A stretch of DNA of 64,000 nucleotides from positions 256,001-320,000 of the forward strand of contig CAXXET010000006.1 of NCBI GenBank assembly GCA_963666115.2, read 5' to 3'. The notes under the pieces were generated by a model that saw only the letters and a program-made list of their open reading frames with translations, made no database searches and was not told where the DNA came from. This DNA comes from Dehalococcoidia bacterium (GTDB taxonomy: Bacteria > Chloroflexota > Dehalococcoidia > UBA6926). Both the position numbers and the translations under genes were made by a program. This document shows positions 5,013 through 23,820 of this stretch, in pieces; position 1 is the stretch's first letter, and every line of letters begins with the position of its first letter.

Positions 5013-5288
5013 TTACTTGCCGTCGATGAGGCCCTGTTCGGCCTCCCAGACTACATCGATAGGCGACACAATATCGCCAAGAATCTTAATTCGATCCCGG
5101 TCACGTCCGAAAGGCGGCGGGAATCGTTTCTCGTGTGGCGTGAGCCTGGCGACGGGTTTGCCGTTTTTTGTGATGATGATTTCCTCGCCGGATTCCGCGA
5201 CCTCGTCCATGAGCTTGAGGCACGTTGCCTTGAACTCGGATGCCTTGATGGTGCGGGGCGTTCCGGGAGTTGGTTCAGAAGTCGTCAT
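5013..5288 (-). CDS. Phd/YefM family antitoxin (orphan)
   Basis: TIKASEFKATCLKLMDEVAESGEEIIITKNGKPVARL is a typical Phd N-terminus; ATG at 5288 has an upstream GGAG. Confidence 0.85.
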   Translation of the reverse strand: MTTSEPTPGTPRTIKASEFKATCLKLMDEVAESGEEIIITKNGKPVARLTPHEKRFPPPFGRDRDRIKILGDIVSPIDVVWEAEQGLIDGK

Positions 5289-5325
5289 GCCGCATTCTCC
5301 CTTGCAGCGATTTCCTGTCGTGTCG

Positions 5326-5349
5326 TGACCATAGTCATGACTATGGTCA
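5326..5349. promoter_or_regulatory. Perfect 24-bp palindrome, probable Phd autorepression operator
   Basis: TGACCATAGTCATGACTATGGTCA lies immediately downstream of a minus-strand TATACT -10 (5351-5356). Confidence 0.7.
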
Positions 5350-5496
5350 TAGTATACGCGGGTCCTCCTGACCGCGTGGCGCTCTTTTCTGATTACGATG
5401 GCCGCTCCGGAGGGGTGGCGGGCTAGTATAGTGAAAAGTAAGGAGATTTTGCAAAACGTAAGGAACTTGCCGCGGCACGGAGTCAAGGAGGCTGAC

Positions 5497-5748
5497 GTGG
5501 AGGAATCAAAGATAACGTCCAAGGGGCAGACGACCATCCCGAAGAAGGTGCGGGAGGCGATGTCCATCAAGCCCGGCGACCGGCTGCGGTACGTGGTTGA
5601 TGACAATGTGCTGCTCGTCTTTCCCGTCCGCCCGATCAGCGAGCTTCACCGCTCTATGCCCTACGATGGTCCCACGGTGACCCTGGAGGAGATGGAGCAA
5701 GCTATCGAGGATGGGGCATTGGGCAGGCCAGTGCGGCCGAGGTCTTAG
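5497..5748 (+). CDS. AbrB/MazE/SpoVT family antitoxin
   Basis: SKITSKGQTTIPKKVREAMSIKPGDRL; GTG start after AAGGAGG; GTAAGGA direct repeats upstream at 5438 and 5458. Confidence 0.88.
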   Translation: MEESKITSKGQTTIPKKVREAMSIKPGDRLRYVVDDNVLLVFPVRPISELHRSMPYDGPTVTLEEMEQAIEDGALGRPVRPRS

Positions 5749-5752
5749 GGGA

Positions 5753-6154
5753 ATGGTCGGTATCGACACCAACGTCCTGCTTCGCTATATCGTTGGGGAT
5801 GACGCTGGACAAGAGGCGGCGGCGACATTGCTGCTGGCGGGACTCACTCCGGAAAACCAGGGTTTCATTTGTCGGGAGGTGGTTCTCGAAACTGTGTGGG
5901 TGCTCGAACGCTCCTACCGGTTTTCACGCGCGCGCATAGCGACGGAACTGTCCACGTTCATCAATAGCGATCATCTCGTGCTGGAAACCGCTGAGGAGGT
6001 GGCGCGGGCAGCTATGCTTTACCGTGATGGCAACGACGATTTTTCGGACCTGTTGATCATGGAGGCGGCGCGGAGGATGGACGCGCTGCCGCTGTATACG
6101 TTTGACCGCAGGCTTGCTCGTATGGATGGGGCGGCGCTGGTGGGCGGAGGGTAG
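5753..6154 (+). CDS. vapC: VapC family PIN-domain toxin
   Basis: GIDTNVLLR, ETVWVL, DFSDLLI and LYTFD motifs; begins 4 nt after the antitoxin stop. Confidence 0.9.
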   Translation: MVGIDTNVLLRYIVGDDAGQEAAATLLLAGLTPENQGFICREVVLETVWVLERSYRFSRARIATELSTFINSDHLVLETAEEVARAAMLYRDGNDDFSDLLIMEAARRMDALPLYTFDRRLARMDGAALVGGG

Positions 6155-6163
6155 GGTGACGGT

Positions 6164-7033
6164 ATGGTTCGCGTTGTTAGCTGGAATATCGCCAGGCGAC
6201 ATGATCCGTGGCGGGAGCTTGTCGGAATGGATGCTGACATTGCGCTTGTGCAGGAGGGTGGTCAGCCGCCGGGGGATGTCCTGGACAGCGTCGATATAGG
6301 CCCAAAGGAATCGTACGATTCCCACCACTGGAACTCTGATTGGTGGAAGGGGCGCTGGCCGTATCTTGCTGAGCGTTGGCCCATGGTCGTCAAGCTGTCT
6401 GACAGTGTGGATGTGGAGTGGTTTAGACAGATTGCTCCAATAAGCGAGACTGCGGATGATGAGATTGCTGTCAGCGGTATTGGGACGATAACGGCCGTCA
6501 GAGTTACCCCAAAGGACGGTTCGACTGAGCCGTTTATCGCGATTTCCATGTACGCAAGGTGGCTTGGTCCGCATCCGAGCGTGGGGTCATCGTGGATATA
6601 CGCGGACGCTTCGGCGCACCGCATCATCTCTGATCTGTCTGCCTTTATCGGCTATGAGGATGCCAGCCGGCACAGAATCATCGCTGCTGGTGACCTGAAC
6701 ACGGGGTATGGCTATATCAGTAATCAGTATTGGGCAGGGAGAGACCAGACGATATTCGACAGGATGTCGGCTATTGGACTTGAACTCATCGGGCCGCAAG
6801 CGCCGAATGGGAGACAGGCCGTACCGATCCCTGAAGGCTTGCCGCCTGATACGAAGAATGTGCCCACCTACTACACCATCGCTCAGCGATACCCCGAGAA
6901 CGCGCAGATTCAACTCGACTATGCTTTCGCCTCGCGTGGGTTCCATGAGTCCATCAATGTCCGCGCACTCAATGAGGTTGATGAGTGGGGGCCGAGCGAC
7001 CACTGCCGGATACTGATTGATATTGATGGGTAG
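6164..7033 (+). CDS. Endonuclease/exonuclease/phosphatase (EEP) family protein
   Basis: VVSWNI, ALVQE, AAGDLN, QLDYAF and PSDH catalytic motifs. Confidence 0.85.
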   Translation: MVRVVSWNIARRHDPWRELVGMDADIALVQEGGQPPGDVLDSVDIGPKESYDSHHWNSDWWKGRWPYLAERWPMVVKLSDSVDVEWFRQIAPISETADDEIAVSGIGTITAVRVTPKDGSTEPFIAISMYARWLGPHPSVGSSWIYADASAHRIISDLSAFIGYEDASRHRIIAAGDLNTGYGYISNQYWAGRDQTIFDRMSAIGLELIGPQAPNGRQAVPIPEGLPPDTKNVPTYYTIAQRYPENAQIQLDYAFASRGFHESINVRALNEVDEWGPSDHCRILIDIDG

Positions 7034-7066
7034 AGGCGCGAGAGACAGCGCCGACACGGAGGGACA

Positions 7067-8116
7067 ATGACGATTTCCGATAACGATAGCCTGCTGAGTT
7101 TCGTCGTGCTGCGGCACACGATGGGGCCGGAGGACGCGGCGACGGATGCCCTGTCTTTCATCCTGAAACGCTCGCCCTCCGCCATGCGGGCGTTATCTGA
7201 GTGCCTGGGCGATGACGACGGCCCACTGCCTGTTGCACGAGTGGGCACCCAAGCGTTTCTTGAGTCGTCCAGAGCCTACCCGGACATGGCACTGCATGAC
7301 TCCGAGGACAACTTGTCGGCATACGTCGAATCGAAGTTTTGGGCGCCACTGACCCACAACCAACCTGTCACCTATTGGGAAGCGCTGCCAACGGACAGGA
7401 GGTCCGTGCTGATGTTTCTGGCTCCCAAATACCGCGTCGATGAGCCGTCTCTGTGGGAGGAGTTGGTGAGTCGACTGCGCGAGAAGGGGCACAAACTGGG
7501 CCCGACGGATAGGAACGCAATGGGAATCTCGGCGAAATCGGCAATCGATCAGCGCCGCTTGATGCTCGCCAGCTGGACGGTATTGCTTGGCAAATTGGAG
7601 GGGAGTGCCAAGAAAGATGGGGATGCCCAGGCAGAATTCGAGGTCGTGCAACTGCAGGCACTGGCTGCGAATGTCGTAGGGGGCACCAGTGATCCTGAGA
7701 AAGAAGAATTCAAGCAGATACTTGCGGACGCCGTGGCCCGTCTCAGGGAATCCGGTTGGGCCGATACCAAGGGACTAACGGTAGGTCAGGGATACGGGTA
7801 CTACGGCAGGTATCTGCGTCTCGCGGGTGCCTATGCTTGGCTCGGTATTGTCGATGAGGCTGCAAAACAGATGCCTGATAAGCCGTTGTGGTTGTCTTTT
7901 GGACCGTGGGATCCCGATTACGTCGGCTTGGATTTGGTGCGCGACAGGCTAGAGGATGAGCTTGAATCAAGAACGGAGTGGCATGGTCTGCTGAATGTCT
8001 GTGTGCCGCTCTCCTTGCCGACGGACGCCGGCGCAAACGCGATGCGCCACGCTATCGTGACCGAGTTGGAGCGTATCGCCAGGCTCATTGACCCCGATGG
8101 GCCGACGTATAGGTGA
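7067..8116 (+). CDS. PD-(D/E)XK nuclease-like protein
   Basis: EDAATDAL...YPDMAL...YVESKFWAPLTHNQ fits the E...PD...ExK pattern; the C-terminal half is unrecognised. Confidence 0.7.
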   Translation: MTISDNDSLLSFVVLRHTMGPEDAATDALSFILKRSPSAMRALSECLGDDDGPLPVARVGTQAFLESSRAYPDMALHDSEDNLSAYVESKFWAPLTHNQPVTYWEALPTDRRSVLMFLAPKYRVDEPSLWEELVSRLREKGHKLGPTDRNAMGISAKSAIDQRRLMLASWTVLLGKLEGSAKKDGDAQAEFEVVQLQALAANVVGGTSDPEKEEFKQILADAVARLRESGWADTKGLTVGQGYGYYGRYLRLAGAYAWLGIVDEAAKQMPDKPLWLSFGPWDPDYVGLDLVRDRLEDELESRTEWHGLLNVCVPLSLPTDAGANAMRHAIVTELERIARLIDPDGPTYR

Positions 8117-8448
8117 ATGCACTCAATGGCGTTGAGGGATCTATGACCATTCCTAGTCCGGAGGATTTTTGGGCGGTGTTTGAGGGGGCGCCTTCGTTGG
8201 CGGGGGATGCTTCGTTGCTGGAGCACGTGGGGCGGCGGTTTCATTCCAAGTACCTAGAGACGATCATGCGGGCGCGTGACGATGCGGCGGCGGACCGCGC
8301 GTGGGAGGGGTTCTACTTTTGGATGGTTTTTCCCGAAACGAACCGCAAGCCGTTTGAGATTCCGCCAGAGGAGGCGAGCGCGCTGCTGGAGGCGCTCAAG
8401 CCGTTGGTGGCGCGGCTGCGGGAGGGGCTGCGGGCTAGCCAAGCTTGA
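8113..8448 (+). CDS. Hypothetical protein
   Basis: 111-aa ORF (alternative start 8143), coupled to the upstream stop and overlapping the ffh 3' end. Confidence 0.55.
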   Translation: MNALNGVEGSMTIPSPEDFWAVFEGAPSLAGDASLLEHVGRRFHSKYLETIMRARDDAAADRAWEGFYFWMVFPETNRKPFEIPPEEASALLEALKPLVARLREGLRASQA

Positions 8449-9766
8449 ATGGCAGGCCCCTGATTTTCTTGCCTGACGATAGCTGCTTCATCAGCTTTCG
8501 CATCTCCATGAACTGGTTGAGCATCCGGTTCACGTCCGCGGGCTGTGTGCCGCTGCCCCGCGCGATGCGTTTGCGGCGGCTGCCGCCGATGATCTCCGGC
8601 CTCTCGCGCTCCTCCGGCGTCATGGACAGCACGATGGCCTCCACGCGCTTGATCTGCTTTTCGTCGAACGCGTCCGCCGAAACCTTGCCCTTGAGTTGAG
8701 AGAAGCCCGGCACCATATCGACCAGTTGCGCCATGCCGCCCATGTTGCGCAACTGGTTCATCTGGTCCAGGAAGTCGTTGAGGTCGAAACTGGCCGTTCG
8801 GAGCTTGCGCTCTATCTCCTGCGCCTTGGCCTCGTCGATGGTCTGCTGCGCCTTTTCGACGAGGGTGACGACGTCGCCCATGCCAAGGATGCGTCCGGCG
8901 AGTCGATCCGGGTAGAACGGCTCCAGCGCGTCCATCCGCTCGCCAACGCCGATGAACATGACGGGGAGGCCGGTGACGGCGGTGATCGAGAGTGCCGCGC
9001 CGCCGCGCGCGTCGCCATCCATCTTGGTCAGCACGAGGCCGGTCAGCGGCACTTGCCTGTGGAACTCCTCGGCGGCGTTGACGGCGTCCTGGCCGGTCAT
9101 GGCATCGACAACAAGCAGCACCTCGGCGGGGTTGAGCGCCTTACGCACGTCCGCCAGTTCCTTCATCAGCTCGTCATCGACCTGCAACCGCCCGCCGGTA
9201 TCGAAGATGTGCCAATGGGCGTTGGCATCGCGGGCTGCGGCGAGGGACGATTTGGCAACAGCGACGGCGTTCGAGTTGCCCGGCTCGGCGTGGACGGGCA
9301 CGTTGATCTGGCTGCCAAGCGCGGTGAGTTGCTCAATAGCGGCGGGGCGGCGCACGTCGCCCGCTCCGAGCGAGACGGCCTGTCCCTGCTGCACGAGGTT
9401 GGACGCCAGCTTGGCGGCGGTCGTGGTCTTGCCGGAGCCTTGCAGTCCGACGAGGAGGATGGTGGCGGGGCGGGTGTCGCCGGCATCCAGCGCGCGGTTC
9501 TCCTTGCCGAGAACGTCCGTCAGTTCCTCCTGTACGATCTTGATGATCTGCTGGACGGGCGTGATAGATTCCAACACGTCCTTGCCGACGGCGCGGTCAC
9601 GGATGCTCTGCTGGAGTTCGCGTACCACGCGTAGGTTGACGTCGGCCTCAAGCAGGGCGCGACGGACTTCCCGCAGCGCCTCTTCGACGTCCGCCTCGGT
9701 GATGCGGCCGCGGCCGGACAGCTTGTTGAATACGCCGGTGAGTCGTTCGGTGAGTGCTTCAAACAT
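8435..9766 (-). CDS. ffh: Signal recognition particle protein Ffh
   Basis: GLQGSGKTT, DTGGR, TKMDGDARGG motifs and M domain with SRRKRIARGSG. Confidence 0.97.
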   Translation of the reverse strand: MFEALTERLTGVFNKLSGRGRITEADVEEALREVRRALLEADVNLRVVRELQQSIRDRAVGKDVLESITPVQQIIKIVQEELTDVLGKENRALDAGDTRPATILLVGLQGSGKTTTAAKLASNLVQQGQAVSLGAGDVRRPAAIEQLTALGSQINVPVHAEPGNSNAVAVAKSSLAAARDANAHWHIFDTGGRLQVDDELMKELADVRKALNPAEVLLVVDAMTGQDAVNAAEEFHRQVPLTGLVLTKMDGDARGGAALSITAVTGLPVMFIGVGERMDALEPFYPDRLAGRILGMGDVVTLVEKAQQTIDEAKAQEIERKLRTASFDLNDFLDQMNQLRNMGGMAQLVDMVPGFSQLKGKVSADAFDEKQIKRVEAIVLSMTPEERERPEIIGGSRRKRIARGSGTQPADVNRMLNQFMEMRKLMKQLSSGKKIRGLPFKLG

Positions 9767-9829: not shown

Positions 9830-10216
9830 TCAGTTCCTGGTGGTGGCGGAAATCAAGGGGAGGAGACGCTCCAGCAATTCGGCAACGTCGCCCAAATCGT
9901 CTGCGATCTCATCCGCATCGAGAAACCTCTTTCGCTGGTAGTAGTTGCTGTGGAGCATCTCGGCGGAATGTCCCATTTGCACCAACCGGCGTCGATTTCC
10001 CGTTTGCGCGGCAGCCAGCCTGACGATGTGTCGAAATGCCTCGTGGCGGTTGTACTGCTGGCCCATTGCAGCGGCAACAGCCTTGACCATGTGCGATGCT
10101 GCCCCCCAGCCCTTCTCGGAGGCTTGATGGAGGTCTCCATCGGCAAGATAGGCTCGCGCTCTATCCAAGAACTCGATAGCCTGCTGGTGATAGTCCGTAA
10201 CGGCATCAGTTGTCAT
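9830..10216 (-). CDS. PaREP1-like (HEPN superfamily) protein
   Basis: ARAYLADGDLHQASEKGWGAA...LHSNYY motif; ATG at 10216 follows GGAGG. Confidence 0.75.
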   Translation of the reverse strand: MTTDAVTDYHQQAIEFLDRARAYLADGDLHQASEKGWGAASHMVKAVAAAMGQQYNRHEAFRHIVRLAAAQTGNRRRLVQMGHSAEMLHSNYYQRKRFLDADEIADDLGDVAELLERLLPLISATTRN

Positions 10217-10291
10217 TCGTTCCTCCCGAGCCCAGTTTACGAAGCAGAATGAATGTTGGGCAAGTTGTGGCGCACAGAGCGGGCGGAATCC

Positions 10292-10366
10292 TGGAGCGGG
10301 CGATGGGGATCGAACCCACGACATTCTGCTTGGGAAGCAGACACTCTACCACTGAGTTACGCCCGC
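10292..10366 (-). tRNA. tRNA-Gly(CCC)
   Basis: GCGGGCGTAACTCAGTGGTAGAGTGTCTGC-TTCCCAA-GCAGAATGTCGTGGGTTCGATCCCCATCGCCCGCTCCA folds as a cloverleaf with encoded CCA. Confidence 0.96.
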
Positions 10367-11270: not shown

Positions 11271-12098
11271 TCAACCCGAATTGGCCAGGCGGCGGGCTGT
11301 TGTTATGAAGCCGGTGTGGGCGACCATGCGGTGGGCGGGGCGGAGGGTCTGGGGGCCGGCGTCCCAGGGGCGGAGGGCGATTTCGAATTGTTCGATGAGG
11401 TCGAATACGGGGTCTGCGTCCAGGTCTTGCCAGAGGCGGTGCAGTTGGAGCGTGGTGGGGACGTAGGCGAGGAAGATGCCGCCGGGGCGCATGGCGTCCC
11501 GCGCGTGGGGAATGACGCGCCATGGTTCGGGCAGGTCCAGCACGACGCGGTCTACGGCCTGCTCCTCGATGCCATCCGCGTAGATGTCCGCGACGTGGAC
11601 GGTGAGGCGGTCCGACAACTCAGGCGGCAGGAACGTCGTGATGTTGCGCTGGGCGAGTGCGGCGAAATCGTCGCGGGTTTCATAGGAATGGACGCGGCCG
11701 GATTCGCCGACGGCTTGCAGCAGCGCGATTGTCAGCGCGCCTGAGCCGATGCCCGCCTCGACCACTGTCGCGCCGGGGCGGATGTCGGCATAGGTGAGGA
11801 TCGCGCCGATGTCCTTGGGGTAGATTGGCGTCGCGCCGCGCTTCATGGTCAGGATGTAGTCGGCGAGCGTGGGCCGCAGCGCGAGGTAGACGCCGCCCTT
11901 CTGCTCCGTGCGAAACTCGCTGCCCTCCGGATGGCCGATCATGTCGTCGTGCCGGATGATGCCGGCGTGGGAGTGGAACTCGCCGCCCTCCTTAAGGGTG
12001 ACAAGGTACTTGCGGCGCTTGCGGTCGGTGAGCAGGACGAGGTCGCCGGGGCGGAAGGCGCCTGGCATGGCGGCGGGGTTGTGGGGTTGGTTGGTCAT
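11271..12098 (-). CDS. trmI: tRNA (adenine-58-N1)-methyltransferase
   Basis: IYPKD, VEAGIGSGALT, LDLPEPW and LRPAHRMVAHTGF motifs. Confidence 0.92.
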   Translation of the reverse strand: MTNQPHNPAAMPGAFRPGDLVLLTDRKRRKYLVTLKEGGEFHSHAGIIRHDDMIGHPEGSEFRTEQKGGVYLALRPTLADYILTMKRGATPIYPKDIGAILTYADIRPGATVVEAGIGSGALTIALLQAVGESGRVHSYETRDDFAALAQRNITTFLPPELSDRLTVHVADIYADGIEEQAVDRVVLDLPEPWRVIPHARDAMRPGGIFLAYVPTTLQLHRLWQDLDADPVFDLIEQFEIALRPWDAGPQTLRPAHRMVAHTGFITTARRLANSG

Positions 12099-12288
12099 GG
12101 TGATATGGGCAACGAAAGTTATGTCGCAGAGATAGCACGGTAGGCGTCAAGGGCCTCCTGGCAGTTGCCGTCAAGGTTGACGTGGATGGAGAGGGTGGGG
12201 GGGGCTTCGTACTGTTGGTGGTTTGTCATGATGGGGGGCTTTCTTGATCCATCTTTCGCCCTACACGGCACTTCAATCTCTCACGTGC

Positions 12289-14598
12289 TTACGAACTGAC
12301 TCGCTGGCTGACAGTCGCCACATGAGCAGACAGTCCGCCGAGCCAATCGAGTTCCTCCGGCGTTATGTATCTCCTTCCCGTGTGGGAAAGCCGATTCCTC
12401 AATGTATTGAGGCGATCGAACCAACCCAGCTGCGCCCTTTTGGACCGGTCGGTGGGCGACATTGCCCATATGTTGTCGAAGTCTTGCCAATTGCTGTCAG
12501 CGATAGTCTTGTAGTCAACCAAGTTCAAGAACTCATGGGCCTCTCCGCCCTCGTCGCTTTCCTCCATCCGGGCGGAAGCCGAGCGTCGGATATTCTGTGG
12601 GATTGCGGGCCTCCACCAATCGTCAACGCTGCCCTCATATCTCTCGTCCAATATCCGAAACGTTACATCGCGGATCACGTTTTCGATTGTCCCCACCAAG
12701 TTCCGGGCGGTCTCTATGTTGCCCTCGTTGCTCTGCGCCAAGAATTCACTCAGGCCCTCCGGATCAAATTTCTGGAATTTTTCGTGAACGAGAGCCATTA
12801 CGCGCATGGCCGAATTCCGGTAGCCGCTGGATCCGTAATCCCTTTGCCGAAATTCCTTCATTACGGCATCGGCGTCGGCACCAGCAAAATAGTCGACGAT
12901 GGGTTCCAGGAGATATTTGATCAGGTCCAAGAGTTCGTGTGGCGAAGACTTCCACGGTTCGGATATGTTGCGCCTAGACAATTCATACGAGAGTGCCTCA
13001 CGTACGAAACGCAGGAGCGCAGTAATTCCGTTGTTGGTGCAGAGGAAACCACCAGGGCCTGCCAGCCTGCCCCAATGTTCCGGGCAGCCCCGAGATACTT
13101 CCAACAGGAATGCTTCCACGAACTGGCTACAGCGGTCGACCGAAGAGCTGTCGTCATTAGAATACAAGGAGCCCGGAGCGAACACACCGGCAGCTATGCG
13201 ACCAACGATCTGACTGTCTCTCACGGCATCTCTCAGGGACGGTCTGGTTATCGGTCTTGAAGTCGAGTCCGAACCCCATTCCCCTGCAACCAAATCGTAG
13301 AGTGGTGACGATCTCTTGGTTGCCAAGTTAGCGGCGACTCGCGAATTCAATTGGCGCAACTTGTCCTGTGGGCCAGCCGTTGGATCAAGGATTTCCGGCT
13401 CAAGCTCCACCAGAAGCCCCTTGGGCACCCGAACCTGCTTACTGTTGATGTCAACGAACATGTTGACTTCTTCTGCAGCAGTCAATCCCTCGAATGCCAA
13501 AACCGGAACTTTCCCCTTGCTGGCAAACTCAGTACGAGCAAAGCCGTAGAGGCGGTGCTGCCCATCGATCAAGTAGGCACTACGGTACGTATTCGGCAAA
13601 TACAGAGTCCCGAAGACTGTTGAATCCTCCGCGGCAGGACCGCTAGCCTCGAATCGCAGCGGTCGAGTCGGACGAAAATTGACGACGACATTTGTAGGGA
13701 AAATGCCCCCGTTGTGCTTCTCAATGTGTTCGGCTATAGCCTTAAGTCGATTGCGCCCGAGTAGCCGCTGATACGTGCCAACAGGATCCTCCTCACTGGA
13801 GCCCCTATGACTAACGTAGGCTAGTTTAAGTAGCTTCTCCGGTTCGATAGTGAACTGGTAAAACCGATTCTTCCCGAACCTGCCTCGGACTGCCGACACC
13901 GTCTCATTAAGTCCCGATATCGTGCTTCCCTGTAGAAGGTCGCCCAAGAGTTGGTATCGCGCAGCAGACTGTAGGATTCGAACCAATTTGTCGTAGTAGT
14001 CCAGCTGTCTGTCTCGCAGCACCGCGATCTGGAATTCCCTAGCTCGCGCCCTGTCGGGTTCACTCCAGTCGATGTTCCGGGTGGCATAGACAAATATGAC
14101 TCGCCGCCGGTCGCCAGGCACGTGCCTATGCACCGCTTGACGAATCGGCTCCTGGAGGGCTCTAGTTTCACCGAGGTCCTTCTGTAGTGATCGGGAACGC
14201 AGCGTTTCTGCCGCCTTGCATTCAACTACGATGGCTGTTTCGTCATCAACAGCAAACACGTCGATCTGCTTGGTCGGCGCCCCCGAGCCATTGGAGGCTA
14301 TGGGGATTCTGAAGCGATTATCCTTATTGATTTGCTTGAATCCCATTCGTGCCAGCAACATCCATATTTCATCTTCAAGTTGTTCGCCAACAGGCTTAGG
14401 TTTCCTCATCCGCACCGTCGACTTATTTGTCCGGACAAGCTCCCAGCCGTTCTCAAGCCTCATCTCTTCTTCTGCGGATGGGAAGGTGGACTCATAGAAG
14501 CGGCTTTTCCGCTGTCGCATCGCAGCCACTATCGTCTGTCCAGATATAAGTCCGGGCAGCGCATTTGCGTCAGCGGTCTCGGGATCGCGGAGAGTCAT
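12289..14598 (-). CDS. DGQHR-domain protein with N-terminal PD-(D/E)XK nuclease and C-terminal Swt1-like HEPN domain
   Basis: QIDVFAVDDETAIVVECK; YQR...FPTNVVVN...LIDGQHRLYGF...MFVDINSKQ; DWW...LNTLRNRLSH (RxxxxH). Confidence 0.8.
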   Translation of the reverse strand: MTLRDPETADANALPGLISGQTIVAAMRQRKSRFYESTFPSAEEEMRLENGWELVRTNKSTVRMRKPKPVGEQLEDEIWMLLARMGFKQINKDNRFRIPIASNGSGAPTKQIDVFAVDDETAIVVECKAAETLRSRSLQKDLGETRALQEPIRQAVHRHVPGDRRRVIFVYATRNIDWSEPDRARAREFQIAVLRDRQLDYYDKLVRILQSAARYQLLGDLLQGSTISGLNETVSAVRGRFGKNRFYQFTIEPEKLLKLAYVSHRGSSEEDPVGTYQRLLGRNRLKAIAEHIEKHNGGIFPTNVVVNFRPTRPLRFEASGPAAEDSTVFGTLYLPNTYRSAYLIDGQHRLYGFARTEFASKGKVPVLAFEGLTAAEEVNMFVDINSKQVRVPKGLLVELEPEILDPTAGPQDKLRQLNSRVAANLATKRSSPLYDLVAGEWGSDSTSRPITRPSLRDAVRDSQIVGRIAAGVFAPGSLYSNDDSSSVDRCSQFVEAFLLEVSRGCPEHWGRLAGPGGFLCTNNGITALLRFVREALSYELSRRNISEPWKSSPHELLDLIKYLLEPIVDYFAGADADAVMKEFRQRDYGSSGYRNSAMRVMALVHEKFQKFDPEGLSEFLAQSNEGNIETARNLVGTIENVIRDVTFRILDERYEGSVDDWWRPAIPQNIRRSASARMEESDEGGEAHEFLNLVDYKTIADSNWQDFDNIWAMSPTDRSKRAQLGWFDRLNTLRNRLSHTGRRYITPEELDWLGGLSAHVATVSQRVSS

Positions 14599-14610
14599 AG
14601 CAGGCCTGCC

Positions 14611-15219
14611 CTATCCACAGCCATTCAAGTTTATCTGAGCCATTTCATTTCCCCATTGTACCCATCCTTCGCGTCGATGTCGGGCAAAGAGCTCCAGATG
14701 GGGACCAGGGCTGCATTGCTCAATGATGTCGTACAGTTCATCGGGTTTTCGGGAGTGCTCCCGTCGCTGCGTTGCTAACAGATTCACTTGGCGTCTCCCA
14801 GGGGAAAACGTCCTTAGGTGACCCTTGACCCCAAATAGAATCAGCTCTGTGACGTTGCGAAAGTAGAAGCCAACACCCCGTCCGTCTGCCCCGCCGTCCT
14901 TGCGTACCTTGAACCAGACGAGATTTGTCTTGTACTCAAAGCCCCAGTGCTTCAGCACCTCTAGGCCCGTCTCAACGAGGGCGTTCGGAACCCACAAATA
15001 GAGATGGCTCTGGCTGTCCGCCAGGTCAGGAACAGGAATGTCCTTGATCTCGTCATTGCTCATAGAAGGATAGCGGTGTAGACGGTGGTACTCGGGTGCT
15101 ATCCGGCCAGTCCGATTCTTGAACCTCCAGGGGGGATCGGCCAAGATCGTCCCATAGGAATCCTCGGCAAGTTCCCCGATTTCGCCAACATGTTGGGCAA
15201 TAGTTGCTATCGTAGCCAT
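14611..15219 (-). CDS. MT-A70 family N6-adenine methyltransferase
   Basis: ILADPPW, HLYLW, WGFEYKTNLVWFK, HSRKP and LELFAR...GWVQWGNE motifs. Confidence 0.9.
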   Translation of the reverse strand: MATIATIAQHVGEIGELAEDSYGTILADPPWRFKNRTGRIAPEYHRLHRYPSMSNDEIKDIPVPDLADSQSHLYLWVPNALVETGLEVLKHWGFEYKTNLVWFKVRKDGGADGRGVGFYFRNVTELILFGVKGHLRTFSPGRRQVNLLATQRREHSRKPDELYDIIEQCSPGPHLELFARHRREGWVQWGNEMAQINLNGCG

Positions 15220-15384
15220 AGGCCCCGCTCCCCGTAAGGCATAACAGCTCACCTCCCCGCTCACTGTGTTAAAGGGTATCACCCTACGCCTACCCCCTAC
15301 CACTCACACCCCCGCAGCTCCCGCTGCTGCGCAGTCTTCGTCTTGTTGGCTGGTGGCGCCGCCTCGCCTGTGGCGATGACTTTT

Positions 15385-15498
15385 GCCCTCCTTAAAGGGT
15401 GACGAGGTACTTGCGGCGTTTGCGGTTGGTGAGCAGGGCTCGGTTGGCGGGGCGGAGGGCGCCGGGGTGGCGGTGGGGTTGTGGGGTTGGTTCGTCAT
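15385..15498 (-). pseudogene. trmI: Decayed duplicate of the trmI 5' end
   Basis: Aligns to 11985-12098; both start MTNQPHNP and share GTGAC.AGGTACTTGCGGCG.TTGCGGT.GGTGAGCAGG. The copy carries substitutions and single-base indels. Confidence 0.85.
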
Positions 15499-15532
15499 CG
15501 TGTGCATCCGCTGATTTCGGGCAAAGAAAAAG

Positions 15533-15651
15533 CCCCGGCAACGACCTATTTTCCACAGAGGGCTGCCCCTCCAGTATCGTCGGCGCTGAAACGTTTCACT
15601 TCCGTGTTCGGGATGGGAACGGGTGGGTCCGCTTCGCCAGAGTCACCGGGA
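15533..15651 (-). rRNA. rrf: 5S rRNA, stand-alone
   Basis: TCCCGGTGAC...CCCGTTCCCATCCCGAACACGGAAGTGAAAC...AATAGGTCGTTGCCGGGG has the conserved 5S motifs and paired ends, followed by a U tract. Confidence 0.93.
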
Positions 15652-19649: not shown

Positions 19650-22600
19650 ATGATTTCATCGGTTGGCGGGGTTGTGGGGTCTTGGCGAATCATCGTCCTG
19701 GGGTTGTTTGCCCTGGGGGCGGTGGTGTGGGCCGCGCAGCCCGTTGCGGCGTCGTCGCCGCCCGCCACGCCTGATTCCGTTACGGTGACCCGCGCCGACG
19801 GCACGCTCACCGCATCGTGGGTCGGCGTCTTCGGGGCGACCAGCTACCACATCACCTACAGTTCAGACGCCGGCGCAAGCTGGAGCCTCGCCGCCTTCAG
19901 CTACTCGCCTACCACCATCACCATCAGCAACATCTCCAACTCCAGCACGTACATCGTGGGTGTCCGCGCCTATAATCCCTCGGGCTGGAGCGGCTGGCGC
20001 AATTCCCCCTCCTCGCCGCCGTACTCCACTCTGCCCCCGCAGCCTCCGCCCACCTCGCCCCCCGCCAGCGTTGACGGTATCGCCACAACCCGCGCCGACG
20101 GAACGCTGACCGCAACGTGGACGTCCGTCCCAACCGCCACGCACTACCACATCACCTACTCGTCCAACGGCGGCGGAAGCTGGAGCCTTGCCGCCTACGC
20201 CCATCCCGCAGGCTCCCCCACAACCGGCATCACCTTCGGCGTCCACAACTCCAACACATATGTCGTGGGGGTGCGCGCGTGGAACGCGGCCGGCTGGAGC
20301 GGCTGGACGAACTCCGCGCCAAGCAATCCCTACTATGTGAACCCCCCGGCATTCCCGCCGCCCGCCATCTCCTCAATTACCACCTCCCGCAGCGCCGGCT
20401 CGCTCACCGCCACCTGGGACGCCGTGGGCACCGCGTCCAAGTACCACGTGAACTATTCGTCCAACGGCGGCGCGAGCTGGACCGCCGTCACCATGAACCA
20501 CCCCGCCGCGTCGCCCAAGACGAGCATCGTCATCAGCGTCGACCAGGCCAAGACCTATATCGTGGCCGCCCGCGCCGGCAACCACAGCGGATGGAGCGGC
20601 TGGACGAACTCATCGCCGGCCGAACCCGTCGGCCTCGATGCGCCCGCCACCGTCACGCTGGCGCACAACGGCACGACACTCGCGGCATCGTGGGATGCCG
20701 TGGACGATGCCTTCTGCTACGACGTCGAAATGCGGGACGGGCAGGGCGGCAGTTGGCTCCCCGTGCTTGTCGGCGCAACCGGAACCTCCGCGACCATCAC
20801 CGCGCCGAATCATCGCAGCAGCTACCAGATCCGCGTCCAGGCCCTCACTGAGGAAAACGCCGGCAGCCCCTGGACCGAGTCCTCCATGGCGCATCCGTCC
20901 ATGCAGCCCCCCGCCACTCCCTACTGGCTCAACCTCAGCCGCACCGGCCACGACACCGTGAAGGCCACGTGGAACGCCGTCTCCAACCAGACCGGCTACA
21001 CCGTCCAGTACAGCGGCGACAACTGGGCCACGCAGAGTTCCACGACTCTGGCCGCCGCCGATTCTTCCGCATTCTTCAACATGGACCTCACCAAGACATG
21101 GGTCGCCCGCGTCAAGGCCACCAACGTTTATGGCGACAGCCAGTGGAGATACTCCACCGCAATGGGACCGCCCCAGTTGACCGCCGAGGGCTTTTGGGAC
21201 TACGGCGAAATCAAGCTCACCAACTTCGGCGGCAACTGGTACTACAAGGCAAACGTCGGCCCACACGCCACCTGTCAGGGCCCCGTCTCCGGCGGCAGCC
21301 TGACCGTCAGCGGCCTCGCCAACGCCACGGAATACACATACAGCGTCCATGACAACGAAACCTGCGATGCCGTCACCGACGACGACGAAGAAACCTTCGA
21401 CACGACGCCGGTGAGCGTGAGCAACCTGGCCGAGACGACGGCTGGGACGGTCGGCATTGTCGGCAGGTACAGCAATACGGTCTACAGGCACGCCTCCGCC
21501 TTTAGCACGGGTTCCAACAGCGGCGGTTATGATCTGTCAAGCGTCACACTCGGTGTATGGCAGATTCAGGGTTCGCCTACGGCGCTCAACCTAACAATCC
21601 ACGCGGACAGCGGCGGCAACCCGGCCGGAAGCGCAACCCATACCCTGACGGGAACGTCGCCAACCGCAGGGGGCGACCACACCTACACGTGCCCCGGCAC
21701 CTGCAAGCTGGAACCCAACACGGTCTACCATCTGGTCATAGCCGCCAGCCTCCCCGCCTCAGGCAACCACTACTATGGCATCGACCGCACGACCTCCGAC
21801 AACCAGACGAACACGCCCTCTACAGCCGGCTGGTCCATCGGGAACGTGTATAAGTACAATTGGCCCGGCTTCAATTTCTGGAACACCAACACCGATTCAT
21901 ACATCCACCAGTTCACTGTGAATGCCACACCCATCGACCCCGATGCGCGCACCGTGGACAACCTCGGCGAGACGAAGGTCGGGACCAGCGCAGTCGGCAT
22001 GATTGATGGAACCGCCTACTCGCGAGCATCCGCCTTCACCACGGGTTCCGTCAGTGACGGGTACAAGCTGCAGGGTGTCACAATCAGCGTGGAGACCACC
22101 ACCGGCTCGCCCACGGGATTTACCGCGGCGATCCATCGGGCCAGCGGCAGCAGCCCGGCGTCCGCCGCGCTCTATACGCTGACCGGAACGACGCCGGCGG
22201 CGGGGGGAGGCGACTACACCTTCTCCTGCTCCGGAACCTGTTCCCTGTCGGCCAACACGACCTACTACCTGGTGATGAGTGGAACCGGCCCCAGCACGGG
22301 CCACCACTACTACGCCATCGACGAAACGACGTCGGACACCGAGACGAACACCCCGTCCTCCGCCGGTTGGTCCATTGCCAACGTCTCCAAGACCAGTTAC
22401 GGCGGCGGCGGCTGGAGTGACAATGGCCAATCGCGCATCCACCAATTCTCGGTGACGGCCAAGGAGGTCTCCATCCCCACGGCGGTCGCGGGCCCGGTTG
22501 GATTCAGCACCCTCACGCCCTTGAACCTGCTCACCGCCACCAATGTTGCGGACACAAGCCTCACGCTGAATATCTACAGTGGCTACACCAAGTTGGGTTG

Positions 22601-23777
22601 GTACTACTCGCGGATCGGCGGCGGCCCCACCGACCAGTGCGTCGCGGTTTCAGGCCACAGCGTGAATCTGACGGGGCTGACGGCAACGACGCGCTACGAA
22701 TACATCGCCTACTACGGCCCGTGGTGCCTGTCGTCCCAGATCATTGGCAGGACGTGGGTTACAACGGCGGACGCCGGTGTGGGCAACCTGACGCATAACC
22801 TGGACGGCGGCTGCGTCATCGGCAAGCCGAGCGGCTCGACCCATCGCCAGTGCGCCGCGGCGTTCACCACCGGCGCGAACCCCAACGGCGGATACTTCCT
22901 GCACTCCGCAGCCGTCCAGCTGGGCATCGACAGCGGCGGGACCGTTTCTACCAAGGTCGCACTCCACGCGGCTGACGGCAACGGGGCGCCGGAGACGCAG
23001 CCGATGGCCATGCTCGGCAGCACCGGCTCAAAGGCGCGCGGCGCCTACACCTTCACCTGCCTCAACAAGGGCACCTGCAACCTGGAGGAGAAGACCACGT
23101 ACTTCATCGTCGTCTCCGCGCCCTACTCCGCCTATAACTTCTGGCGCCACTGGGAGACCCGCAATTCCGGCCAGGAGTACCGCTGGCCCGCAGACCTCAA
23201 CTGGGCAATCACCGGCGGCGCGATGTACAAGCTCGGCAACGGCGACTGGACGGAAGACCCCTCCGGCAAGACGCCCGTGTTCCACGTGGCCGTCAGTGAG
23301 ACCGGCGGCGGCACGCTCACCGCGCAGACGATAGAGGCGACGGAGGCATCTCTTCGCATCAGCGGACACACCGGCGCCTGGTACTTCAACAGCAACAAGT
23401 CGCCGTACAACAGCACGTGCACCGCCATTAGCAGCGGCACCCGCGTCGACGTCACCGGGCTGTCGGGTGAAACGCACTACGTCTTCACGGCGTACAGCGA
23501 CAGTTCCTGCACGACACCGATCGCGTCCACGCAGTTCACCACGCTACGGGCGGCGAGCCTGACGGCCACGGTGAACAGCGACGACACGGTCTACCTGACG
23601 CTGTCCGACGGCCCGGATGACTGGTGGTTCAGGATCGGCCACGGTTGCCACGCGGTAAGCGGAAACAGGTATCCCACCACCGGCGGCATAGGCGGCTACA
23701 CGGGAACCCACACGGTGACGGCCTATTCAGACAACACCTGCACAACGCAGATAGCATCAACGACGTTCACGGTATGA
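19650..23777 (+). CDS. Large secreted fibronectin type III repeat protein (1375 aa)
   Basis: Signal peptide ending VAA-S; about five FN3 repeats (LTAxW...YxVxVRA.N..GWSGW); repeated SNL...AFxTG...GY.L..V domains and WYY...C...AY...C modules. Confidence 0.85.
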   Translation: MISSVGGVVGSWRIIVLGLFALGAVVWAAQPVAASSPPATPDSVTVTRADGTLTASWVGVFGATSYHITYSSDAGASWSLAAFSYSPTTITISNISNSSTYIVGVRAYNPSGWSGWRNSPSSPPYSTLPPQPPPTSPPASVDGIATTRADGTLTATWTSVPTATHYHITYSSNGGGSWSLAAYAHPAGSPTTGITFGVHNSNTYVVGVRAWNAAGWSGWTNSAPSNPYYVNPPAFPPPAISSITTSRSAGSLTATWDAVGTASKYHVNYSSNGGASWTAVTMNHPAASPKTSIVISVDQAKTYIVAARAGNHSGWSGWTNSSPAEPVGLDAPATVTLAHNGTTLAASWDAVDDAFCYDVEMRDGQGGSWLPVLVGATGTSATITAPNHRSSYQIRVQALTEENAGSPWTESSMAHPSMQPPATPYWLNLSRTGHDTVKATWNAVSNQTGYTVQYSGDNWATQSSTTLAAADSSAFFNMDLTKTWVARVKATNVYGDSQWRYSTAMGPPQLTAEGFWDYGEIKLTNFGGNWYYKANVGPHATCQGPVSGGSLTVSGLANATEYTYSVHDNETCDAVTDDDEETFDTTPVSVSNLAETTAGTVGIVGRYSNTVYRHASAFSTGSNSGGYDLSSVTLGVWQIQGSPTALNLTIHADSGGNPAGSATHTLTGTSPTAGGDHTYTCPGTCKLEPNTVYHLVIAASLPASGNHYYGIDRTTSDNQTNTPSTAGWSIGNVYKYNWPGFNFWNTNTDSYIHQFTVNATPIDPDARTVDNLGETKVGTSAVGMIDGTAYSRASAFTTGSVSDGYKLQGVTISVETTTGSPTGFTAAIHRASGSSPASAALYTLTGTTPAAGGGDYTFSCSGTCSLSANTTYYLVMSGTGPSTGHHYYAIDETTSDTETNTPSSAGWSIANVSKTSYGGGGWSDNGQSRIHQFSVTAKEVSIPTAVAGPVGFSTLTPLNLLTATNVADTSLTLNIYSGYTKLGWYYSRIGGGPTDQCVAVSGHSVNLTGLTATTRYEYIAYYGPWCLSSQIIGRTWVTTADAGVGNLTHNLDGGCVIGKPSGSTHRQCAAAFTTGANPNGGYFLHSAAVQLGIDSGGTVSTKVALHAADGNGAPETQPMAMLGSTGSKARGAYTFTCLNKGTCNLEEKTTYFIVVSAPYSAYNFWRHWETRNSGQEYRWPADLNWAITGGAMYKLGNGDWTEDPSGKTPVFHVAVSETGGGTLTAQTIEATEASLRISGHTGAWYFNSNKSPYNSTCTAISSGTRVDVTGLSGETHYVFTAYSDSSCTTPIASTQFTTLRAASLTATVNSDDTVYLTLSDGPDDWWFRIGHGCHAVSGNRYPTTGGIGGYTGTHTVTAYSDNTCTTQIASTTFTV

Positions 23778-23820
23778 CGCGCGGCTACTCCTTCCCGAAT
23801 GCACGTTCGGATGGCGCGCC

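Follow-up and report, generated by a model that had tools for sequence, protein, structure and literature searches.

The window, a 64,000-nucleotide stretch of a Dehalococcoidia bacterium genome, harbours a cassette of two minus-strand genes, an MT-A70 methyltransferase gene and, 12 nt further on, the gene of a large multidomain protein, hereafter the effector (Table 1). The GC contents of the two genes are 54.2% and 54.5% against 63.4% for the genome, and their GC3 is 0.60-0.61, whereas three flanking genes reach 0.85-0.88, in agreement with an earlier reading made from the letters of the DNA (the sequence-only reading), which had described two co-oriented, closely spaced genes of low GC. The neighbours are trmI, the 5S rRNA gene and a VWA gene, and no dnd, dpd or BglII gene was found within the cassette, as that reading had stated. 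The first gene product carries ADPPW and matched Pfam MT-A70 (E 8.5e-33) as well as PADLOC MTase_II (E 6.6e-84, a generic methylase score), confirming an intact DPPW-type MT-A70 enzyme; its start, the ATG at 15219, is backed by close homologues of 200-206 aa spanning 96-100% of the query. This enzyme is predicted to be the self-marking module, from a family that otherwise usually pairs with BglII/BstYI-like endonucleases; the link of its clade to such endonucleases, named in the sequence-only reading, was borne out at 14 of 27 loci in the phylum and in two annotated plasmids.

Table 1. Features of the cassette and its borders, in window positions.
Feature	Position	Strand	Description
MT-A70 gene	15219-14611	minus	beta-class adenine methyltransferase, 202 aa, ADPPW motif
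Effector gene	14598-12289	minus	769 aa: PD-(D/E)XK nuclease, DGQHR/DndB ParB-Srx, helical domain, Swt1-like HEPN
PD-(D/E)XK nuclease domain	13981..14391	minus	aa 70-206; E75, D113, E126, K128
DGQHR domain	12994..13893	minus	aa 236-535; ParB/Srx core and helical region after the core
Swt1/AbiF-like HEPN domain	12292..12732	minus	aa 623-769; R734-x4-H739
Intact trmI	11271..12098	minus	tRNA m1A58 methyltransferase; insertion target; host gene, outside the system
5S rRNA gene	15533..15650	minus	host gene at insertion border; Rfam RF00001, 89 bits
Decayed, frameshifted copy of trmI start (~118 bp)	15385..15502	minus	86.6% identical to 11985-12102
Heme-binding gene (which we take to be GlcG-like), 3'-end remnant	15306..15363	minus	brought from the cassette's former site
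VOC/YjdN gene, 5'-end remnant	12139..12244	minus	brought from the former site

The effector is built of three folds with conserved catalytic motifs, and the three-domain stack proposed beforehand is supported by profile, conservation and fold. Its motifs lie at residues 111-115 (QIDVF), 125-128 (VECK), 345-349 (DGQHR) and 734-739 (RNRLSH). The TIGR03187 DGQHR model matched aa 236-535 over its cut-off (E 4e-43), and the AlphaFold model (pLDDT 89.2, pTM 0.75) has a restriction-endonuclease fold at aa 70-206 (1y88, Z 12.0, rmsd 2.2, 118 aligned) and, with middling Z scores, a ParB/Srx fold at aa 239-389 (PadC 6ryk, Z 7.9, rmsd 2.6, 99 aligned) and a HEPN fold at aa 625-762 (AbiF 8vz6, Z 9.2, rmsd 3.2, 133 aligned; second match Swt1 C-domain 4pqz, Z 7.5). 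Fold matches in a viral library take in GmrSD N-domains. Foldseek with the whole chain returned no match at E<=0.001, and a PDB sequence search with the effector no significant one. Pfam HEPN_Swt1 matches 22 of 65 family members, the window effector not among them, and the HEPN domain modelled alone without alignment reached pLDDT 55 and was set aside. The ParB/Srx core motifs YQR (276-278), DGQHR and FxxIN (381-385) are invariant in 140 relatives, DGQHR being intact in 140/140 near-full-length ones, and R734 and H739 are both kept in 133 of the 136 relatives covering those positions. The D113-E126-K128 triad is intact in 92/140 relatives overall, in 11/11 MT-A70-linked and in 63/71 Dam-linked ones; K128 is replaced by T in 33 of 43 radical-SAM-linked effectors, so that the DNase of these effectors may be altered.

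The cassette is a foreign insert and was inserted recently, into the start of trmI, at a site that is empty in 20 of 21 congeners. The decayed copy of the trmI start marks the ancestral position, next below the 5S rRNA gene, and forms one direct-repeat arm around the cassette. The remnant at 15306..15363 shares 79-84% identity with the end of the gene that precedes the pair upstream, both at the congener loci L164/L165 and at L004/L006, and the VOC/YjdN remnant is 77% identical to a stretch of the same genome (C6:334314-334422; tblastn 45% over 33 codons). In congeners the pair is found at a site that a different low-GC cassette occupies in this genome. The distribution is patchy, with a full-length effector in 2/21 congeners and 8/400 genomes of the phylum, and relatives occur on plasmids and viral contigs as well. 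A promoter/terminator scan gave 4 sites against 1.8 +/- 1.2 and 6 against 3.3 +/- 1.7 in shuffles, and was given no weight.

Across bacteria and archaea, the effector nearly always adjoins a methyltransferase-type gene, a single one each time, and these genes fall into three unrelated kinds. Relatives of the effector were listed at 162 loci (the best 80 of more than 500 matches per scan, near-duplicates included, 134 of 140 rows being distinct). Dam/D12 methylases occur at 81 of them, B12-type radical-SAM enzymes at 47 and MT-A70 genes at 11, besides one MT-A70 fragment, and two kinds never occur together (0/162). Where at least 1.5 kb was available on both sides, 90 of 92 listed loci hold a partner (Dam/D12 46, radical-SAM 35, MT-A70 9). 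Among the matches listed, 79/79 Dam genes and 11/12 MT-A70 genes lie within 150 bp of the effector, and 76 and 11 of them, respectively, are co-oriented with it. At one locus (L103) an intact effector is followed by an Mrr gene, and neither flank holds a methylase over 7 kb; a second (L159) has no methylase and a truncated effector, and at a third (L155) the MT-A70 gene is part of a BglII pair. In the controls, Dam was adjacent to 3/3 full-length effectors on viral contigs, and 0/25 DGQHR-domain-only loci (short flanks) matched Dam, MT-A70 or radical-SAM queries, two of them weakly matching divergent D12. Contig-length matching of the effector and MT-A70 match lists (26/63 for the closest, 2/56 for the more distant) is indirect and agrees with pairing.

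The NGxxRxN..NVP segment of DpnM and E. coli Dam is retained in 78/79 Dam partners, whose best PDB matches are these two enzymes, and ADPPW is kept in 12/12 MT-A70 partners; the radical-SAM partner gave only weak matches to RimO and B12 radical-SAM models. Beyond the three partner kinds and an ATPase, the largest neighbour cluster covers 7 loci among the matches listed, and no recurrent nuclease family was found in the neighbour clusters of the listed loci. Relatives of the effector form 1,057 clusters at 50% identity (E<=1e-30, partial matches counted), and the Dam version spans 15 phyla. No effector-methylase fusion was seen among proteins of 1347-3845 aa, which is weak evidence, nor any methylase fusion in the four scanned longer matches (of 150 listed); one longer match (P0350) is fused to DUF4357, presumably a RAMA-like methyl-adenine reader, and one has an unassigned 225-aa N-extension. 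Among 99 loci, 4 short effectors with a full partner stand against 3 short radical-SAM partners, a weak asymmetry that could be assembly error; in one genome (G411) the effector has an in-frame stop and the adjoining MT-A70 gene is intact.

The sequence-only reading had proposed a restriction-modification (R-M)-like module in which MT-A70 marks self. The R-M-like part of that proposal is strengthened and the MT-A70-specific part is not upheld: most effector homologues sit beside Dam/D12 or radical-SAM genes instead, an outcome that the sequence-only reading had itself named as speaking against it, and MT-A70, intact in only 11/162 listed loci, is ruled out as the defining partner. Within the window's own clade the recurrent MT-A70 and DGQHR pairing does hold, at 8/8 genome loci of effector relatives with at least 47% identity and at 5/5 in a 400-genome sample of the phylum at 46% identity or more, some genomes being shared with the 8/8 set. 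In an effector tree of 140 rows (FastTree, without clade test) the partner changed at least 6 times, and the MT-A70 partners fall in two separate clades. Partner and effector identities are correlated within each class (rho 0.47, n=61; 0.41, n=36; 0.82, n=11), with 0/500 permutations reaching the observed rho; co-evolution and shared travel fit these correlations alike. Since relatives almost always stand beside one of three methylase types, the family is predicted to be a self-marking immune system and not a fixed pair, and since three unrelated enzymes fit the partner slot, the coupling most likely runs via a DNA mark and not protein contact.

The genome of the window contains one DGQHR gene and no D12 methylase. 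Its single BglII-like gene (PF09195) lies on the same contig about 200 kb from the cassette, beside its own SPPY-type methylase ORF (called by motif only), and no PF09195 endonuclease is adjacent to the cassette. The genomic GATC O/E of 0.71 is not diagnostic, and GATC avoidance was dropped as a target-site clue for that reason; the cassette contains 17 GATC sites.

Assignment of the cassette to Dnd, Dpd, Ssp, GmrSD, PrrC or any PADLOC system was rejected. No already named system in PADLOC 2.0, PDC-M34 included, was matched: there was no full-length component match with the required partner genes, the effector matching at domain level (DpdB at 236-531, PDC-M34B at 629-742, CARF_PDDEXK with E 0.001). 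It scored 83 bits for the DpdB equivalog (cut-off 300) and 66 bits for TIGR04172 (cut-off 450). Neither dndCDE nor dpdA-K is adjacent or recurs as a neighbour in the family's large clusters, and no ssp or dnd gene adjoins the cassette. DUF262 with C-terminal HNH (DUF1524) gave no Pfam match in 65 members, the C-terminus is HEPN, and an N-terminal ABC ATPase or type I R-M context is absent. Full-text literature searches gave no description of this system among the matches listed and the passages covered, and supplementary tables may still list the neighbourhood.

SspE, as outlined in PMC9646914, joins a mark-sensing ParB/Srx-fold NTPase switch to a nuclease, and DndI, as outlined in PMC11662687, holds a ParB/Srx-fold NTPase and a nuclease in a single chain coupled to a DNA mark; SspABCD-SspE and IscS-DndBCDE-DndI share with the cassette a single-chain effector of this kind, for which coupling to a host DNA mark is predicted in the cassette. 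They differ in using a backbone-sulfur mark and a DUF262 (DGQQR) and HNH effector, whereas the cassette joins a base methylase to an effector that has a switch from the DGQHR/DndB branch together with PD-(D/E)XK and HEPN nucleases. By analogy, the system would work like SspE/DndI without belonging to them. Type II R-M (DpnM/DpnII; MT-A70 with BglII/BstYI) is likewise a two-gene methylase and nuclease cassette with the same methylase families, but in place of a BglII/DpnII enzyme the cassette has a 770-aa protein, a predicted NTPase-DNase-RNase fusion, and the methylase slot is exchangeable and may hold a radical-SAM enzyme. PrrC-EcoprrI and RloC, as treated in PMC3710099, combine a nucleotide-binding domain, a C-terminal HEPN RNase (R-x4-H) and a DNA-methylation link; the effector has a ParB fold in place of their ABC ATPase, its own DNase domain, a Swt1-like HEPN and no type I R-M. 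DndB/DpdB, GmrSD and Menshen NsnA also carry a ParB/Srx-fold DGQ(H/Q)R domain with a helical DNA-binding domain behind it (PMC12065111, PMC4619093). However, DndB and DpdB consist of one module each and belong to dnd/dpd operons, GmrSD combines ParB with HNH and has no cognate methylase, and Menshen requires an ABC ATPase and a separate effector. One entry of Table 1 in Anantharaman 2013 lists a ParB protein (Saro_3948) fused to the Swt1-like HEPN family, and that entry names no N-terminal nuclease, methylase pairing or test; the same table places a separate HEPN family (MAE_28990) in operons with ParB and methylase genes. ParB and Swt1-like HEPN within one chain is the architecture of the effector, and its pNL1 homologue SARO_RS17535 maps no more than two genes away from the Saro_3948 position, extrapolated from Saro_3873 = UbiX = SARO_RS17170, thus by locus-tag offset the Saro_3948 fusion probably is a member of the effector family.

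We consider it probable, on balance, that the cassette is a mobile two-gene R-M-like defence system in which the predicted ParB/DGQHR switch reads host methylation and gates the DNase, with the HEPN RNase as backup. The partner would methylate host DNA, with m6A in the MT-A70 version, and we infer self-marking by m6A together with restriction or killing by the effector; a GATC core in the target site is our guess, suggested by the Dam-type partners and by the tie to BglII/BstYI enzymes. The DGQHR ParB-fold domain and its helical DNA-binding part would bind nucleotide and DNA and read the methyl mark, by analogy with the related DUF262 domains of SspE and DndI, which read phosphorothioate. On marked self DNA the nucleases would be held off or the protein released, and the PD-(D/E)XK domain would cleave phage or plasmid DNA that lacks the mark. 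A second, abortive arm may be provided by the HEPN RNase, firing like PrrC if marking fails or the nucleotide state changes. One point against the R-M-like reading is that DndB, after which the DGQHR proteins are named, is reported to repress modification genes (PMC10853773). The two loci without a methylase (L103 and L159) and the K128 change in most radical-SAM-linked effectors also count against it.

It might instead be that the effector does not itself restrict unmarked DNA but, as a PrrC-like or Menshen-like guard of abortive infection, keeps watch on the methylase, on the state of methylation or on nucleotide pools and, upon phage interference, kills mainly via its HEPN RNase. The HEPN motif is indeed better conserved than the DNase triad, HEPN domains next to R-M genes have been proposed as backup suicide RNases (PMC3710099, in its pertinent section), and ParB/DndB domains have been suggested to sense or degrade nucleotides (PMC10853773, likewise). 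We regard this as unlikely, in view of the intact triad in all MT-A70-linked effectors, the lack of a separate restriction enzyme in the cassette to be guarded or of a nuclease family recurring among the neighbours at listed loci, and the improbability that three unrelated proteins are guarded directly.

Two further explanations seem to us very improbable, and to a similar degree. A selfish addiction cassette, whose methylase shields the host from a constitutively toxic nuclease and which is maintained through post-segregational killing, moves from site to site and does little against phages, would fit the minimal two-gene unit, its movement within the genus with remnants of old flanks, its presence on plasmids and viral contigs and the G411 effector with one in-frame stop beside an intact MT-A70 gene. 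Addiction is compatible with defence and not exclusive of it, however, three conserved active-site sets and repeated partner swaps fit an arms race, and the cassette is often missing from close kin. Modification-dependent (type IV, GmrSD-like) or reverse restriction, in which foreign DNA that bears modifications is the target of the effector and the methylase acts as a regulator, marks progeny phage or is an island gene that hitch-hikes, could account for the Mrr-linked locus without methylase (L103) and for the P0350 relative with its fusion to DUF4357, presumably a RAMA-like methyl-adenine reader. To our knowledge type IV enzymes have no cognate methylase, which counts against this explanation, and the near-universal adjacency at listed loci, the operon-tight spacing and the strict mutual exclusion cannot be accounted for by hitch-hiking. 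In its favour are also the viral-library fold matches to GmrSD N-domains and the ParB fold with QR, DGQ(Q/H)R and FxxxN motifs that GmrS shares, as described in part in PMC4619093.

If the R-M-like defence reading is correct, the 1,057 clusters would represent a widespread, predicted immune system (partial matches counted), the mark-sensing NTPase mechanism of SspE/DndI would be extended from phosphorothioate to base methylation, and restriction and abortive infection would be joined in one chain. More tentatively, and with rather more doubt than confidence, the effector may be a ParB-fold switch that senses base methylation, has both a DNase and an RNase output and accepts self-marks from three unrelated writers, namely alpha-class Dam, beta-class MT-A70 and a cobalamin radical-SAM enzyme accompanied by a GHKL/MORC ATPase. 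Were this true, the radical-SAM partner would modify DNA by writing a carbon-linked mark of a new kind, and through the MT-A70 version a bacterial relative of METTL3 could be assayed directly with phage. The natural partner swaps offer a ready experiment, as cross-complementation would show which mark the effector reads, give the target site of the bacterial MT-A70 and test DNA modification by the uncharacterised B12 radical-SAM family; the two-gene, 2.9-kb version in the window is the smallest form for cloning.

We regard the MT-A70 methyltransferase gene and the adjoining effector gene as a real, undescribed candidate for an R-M-like system. The sequence-only reading had seen two co-oriented low-GC genes 12 nt apart, the first encoding an MT-A70 methyltransferase, and both points were confirmed: the gap between the ORFs is 12 nt, GC lies ~9 points below the genome (54% vs 63.4%), GC3 is 0.60-0.61 vs 0.85-0.88, and the methylase matches Pfam MT-A70 at E 8.5e-33 and PADLOC MTase_II at E 6.6e-84, with METTL3 and the ciliate MT-A70 among its PDB matches. 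The proposed effector architecture, a restriction-type nuclease, a ParB/Srx DGQHR domain and a C-terminal HEPN, also held in model folds, profiles and conserved motifs. A confident structure model (pLDDT 89.2, from a 65-sequence alignment) showed a restriction-endonuclease fold at residues 70-206 (Z 12.0 to 1y88, with Card1/Can2 and NucS-like chains likewise matching), a ParB/Srx fold at 239-389 (PadC, Z 7.9) and a HEPN fold at 625-762 (AbiF, Z 9.2; Swt1 C-domain, Z 7.5); the latter two Z-scores are middling alone, yet consistent with profiles and motifs. The effector matches TIGR03187 DGQHR above cut-off and falls far under the DpdB and dnd-associated equivalog cut-offs, and HEPN_Swt1 was found in 22/65 family members. 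Catalytic motifs are conserved: the 140 relatives measuring 680 aa or more all keep DGQHR unchanged, 133/136 retain R734/H739, and D113-E126-K128 is intact in 11/11 MT-A70-linked, 63/71 Dam-linked, 8/43 radical-SAM-linked and 10/15 unassigned effectors. Two longer variants were also seen, P0350 (910 aa), which carries DUF4357 at its C-terminus and lacks an evident HEPN R-x4-H, and P0289 (981 aa), with a 225-aa N-terminal extension of no assigned family.

Coordinates of the features discussed (window positions unless a compared locus, L001 or L020, is named)
Feature	Position	Strand	Basis
MT-A70 methylase, 202 aa	15219-14611	minus	ORF
Effector, 769 aa	14598-12289	minus	ORF
Repeat arms of trmI start	11985-12102 and 15385-15502		sequence identity
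Radical-SAM family examples filling the methylase slot	L001 11897-13510; L020 9406-12601
Exo_endo_phos protein	6164-7033
349-aa ORF, no Pfam/PADLOC/NCBIfam match	7067-8116

PADLOC 2.0, NCBIfam, Pfam, PHROGs and ESM Atlas gave only domain-level names for effector or pair, and a full-text search found no paper combining DGQHR with MT-A70. The pair is not described in the accessible parts of PMC10853773, PMC12065111, PMC4738411, PMC3710099, PMC7544214, PMC2292703 and bioRxiv 2024.10.26.620412, to which subscription papers and supplements may add. Table 1 of PMC3710099 has an entry, Saro_3948, in which ParB is joined to a HEPN of the Swt1-like family; it is probably the pNL1 member of the effector family, judging by a locus-tag offset from the available part of PMC10807440.

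Effector relatives numbered 1,525 among 8,000 scored candidates, the top 120 mostly full-length, and a 50%-identity library held 1,057 clusters at E<=1e-30, partial matches counted in. We compared 162 loci, some of them near-duplicates: 2 on plasmids, 80 in genomes (the best of 532 matches) and 80 in metagenomes (the best of 549), with partner kinds defined by clustering neighbour ORFs and then scanning representatives with profiles. MT-A70 did not prove to be the defining partner that the sequence-only reading had made it, being one of three exchangeable kinds: 79 loci carry a Dam-type D12 methylase (plus 2 with divergent D12), 47 a B12-type radical-SAM enzyme and 11 MT-A70 (plus one fragment). 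The partner is near-obligate and exclusive. No locus of the 162 holds two kinds together, the 22 partner-less ones are mostly on short contigs, and a partner is present at 90 of the 92 loci that have 1.5 kb or more of sequence on each side, the exceptions being L103 (effector intact, Mrr downstream) and L159 (effector truncated). All 79 Dam genes and 11/12 MT-A70 genes (window counted) lie within 150 bp of the effector, the twelfth, at L155, being part of a BglII pair, and Dam accompanies 3/3 full-length effectors on viral contigs. At 25 control loci with a DGQHR-domain match only, Dam, MT-A70 and radical-SAM queries were unmatched, and divergent D12 matched weakly at 2. At six loci (L056, L081, L138, L144, L145, L161) a small gene of no known family and a stand-alone DGQHR gene lie downstream of the methylase, the latter TIGR04172-like, under cut-off, at L056, where this was tested.

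On an unrooted FastTree tree of 140 effectors (134 distinct rows; the 680-aa filter dropped 22 loci and shorter proteins), the three partner labels require at least 6 changes. MT-A70 appears twice, in separate places, once in a well-supported clade of nine (the window and eight labelled Chloroflexota/Dehalococcoidia) sister to two Dam-linked effectors, and once in an unrelated pair (L036/L131). Effector-linked enzymes likewise form two groups amid BglII-linked ones (SH-aLRT 91, 86) on a 41-row MT-A70 tree. The BglII/BstYI neighbourhood that the sequence-only reading named for this clade was corroborated, since 14 of 27 MT-A70 loci in a 400-genome phylum sample adjoin a BglII-like gene (5 adjoin an effector, 8 neither) and the pairing also occurs on annotated plasmids. 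The simplest history, with its direction inferred, would be capture of the methylase of a BglII-type R-M pair by a Dam-linked effector. Partner and effector identities correlate within each class, thus pairs travel together for long periods. Dam partners have DpnM and E. coli Dam as best PDB matches, and 78/79 retain the NGxxRxN..NVP segment common to both, which, given the specificity of Dam, may point to GATC as their site. In Nitratiruptor phage NrS-3 (L204 1880-2467), a gene beside MT-A70 annotated 'methyltransferase' shares 59% identity with an endonuclease of the BglII family, and its label is probably a misannotation. The eukaryotic MT-A70 clade is nested within the BglII-paired radiation according to the available part of PMC4738411, and that of PMC7544214 gives no target site for the window-type clade.

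Of all these features, partner exchange surprises most and lends itself best to testing, especially in the radical-SAM class. CxxxCxxC is present in 47/47 radical-SAM partners, whose matches are confined to weak RimO-like ones and for which PADLOC has no model; the family is possibly a new DNA-modifying enzyme. A GHKL/MORC-like ATPase occurs in 33/47 of these loci and in none of the Dam and MT-A70 loci of the 162-locus set, and a second DGQHR gene is sometimes present. An SNF2 helicase and two genes of no known family lie upstream of the radical-SAM/ATPase/effector operon at L021, L022, L108, L119 and L141.

The cassette is also mobile. It is bracketed by a 118-bp repeat (86.6% identical) of the 5' end of trmI, the tRNA m1A58 methyltransferase gene; the copy on the upstream side carries a frameshift, and the gene downstream is intact. 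The empty site, with the 5S rRNA gene directly above trmI, is found in 20/21 same-genus genomes, and L225 gave no match at the 5S rRNA-trmI site. Inside the repeat lie a 58-bp remnant of the gene preceding the pair in congeners G009 (L165) and G020 (L164) and a remnant, 106 bp long, of the VOC gene found after it in L004/L006, and in the window's own genome the same two genes (C6:329053, 334329) flank another block; therefore the pair was relocated to trmI out of an exchangeable slot. Both trmI and the VOC gene start with ATGACnAACCAAC. No integrase or transposase was found in the insert. Among 12 loci checked, L009 is, window aside, the sole clear case of a duplicated gene start around the cassette (6045-6155, 9363-9473), both cassettes having inserted ~110 bp into a gene start, duplicating it, with no integrase. 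The heme-binding-gene/VOC slot (G000:C6:329053-334769, ~9 kb past the window end), whose cassette content differs between congeners, is a defence hotspot. Full-length effectors occur in 2/21 congeners and 8/400 phylum genomes.

By analogy, we think it reasonably probable that the partner would mark self DNA and that the DGQHR module would sense this mark and gate the nucleases. In SspE (PMC9646914) and DndI (PMC11662687), a DUF262 domain of the ParB family hydrolyses NTP faster on phosphorothioated self DNA, which is thereby spared, and unmarked phage DNA is attacked; the effector is a member of neither family, the likeness lying in the proposed way of working. The helical region past the ParB core would correspond to the ParBDB DNA-binding domain (PMC12065111, available part), and HEPN would serve as a backup like PrrC (PMC3710099, likewise), with which the effector has some features in common without being a member. 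Against mark sensing stand the intact effector without a methylase partner at L103, a radical-SAM partner whose substrate is unproven, a weak decay asymmetry between partner and effector genes, and DndB, reported as a repressor in the accessible part of PMC10853773. A guard that kills mostly via HEPN would fit the better conservation of the HEPN motif than of the DNase triad and K128T (ECT for ECK) in 33/43 radical-SAM-linked effectors, and we hold it to be rather unlikely; a pure addiction cassette and type IV-like restriction each seem improbable beside mark sensing by the DGQHR module.

Elsewhere in the window, a second lower-GC stretch (57-59%) at 5013-8448, flanked by ffh and a gene resembling enoyl-CoA hydratase, holds antitoxin-like and PIN-like ORFs by eye, together with the Exo_endo_phos protein and the 349-aa ORF listed above. 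A small HEPN/PaREP1-like ORF, again by eye, lies directly downstream of tRNA-Gly(CCC) (9830-10324 and 10292-10366) and has no match in most congener loci. Two large secreted-looking proteins at 19650-28290 appear by eye to carry fibronectin-III-like repeats, and the genome is rich in genes with such repeats.
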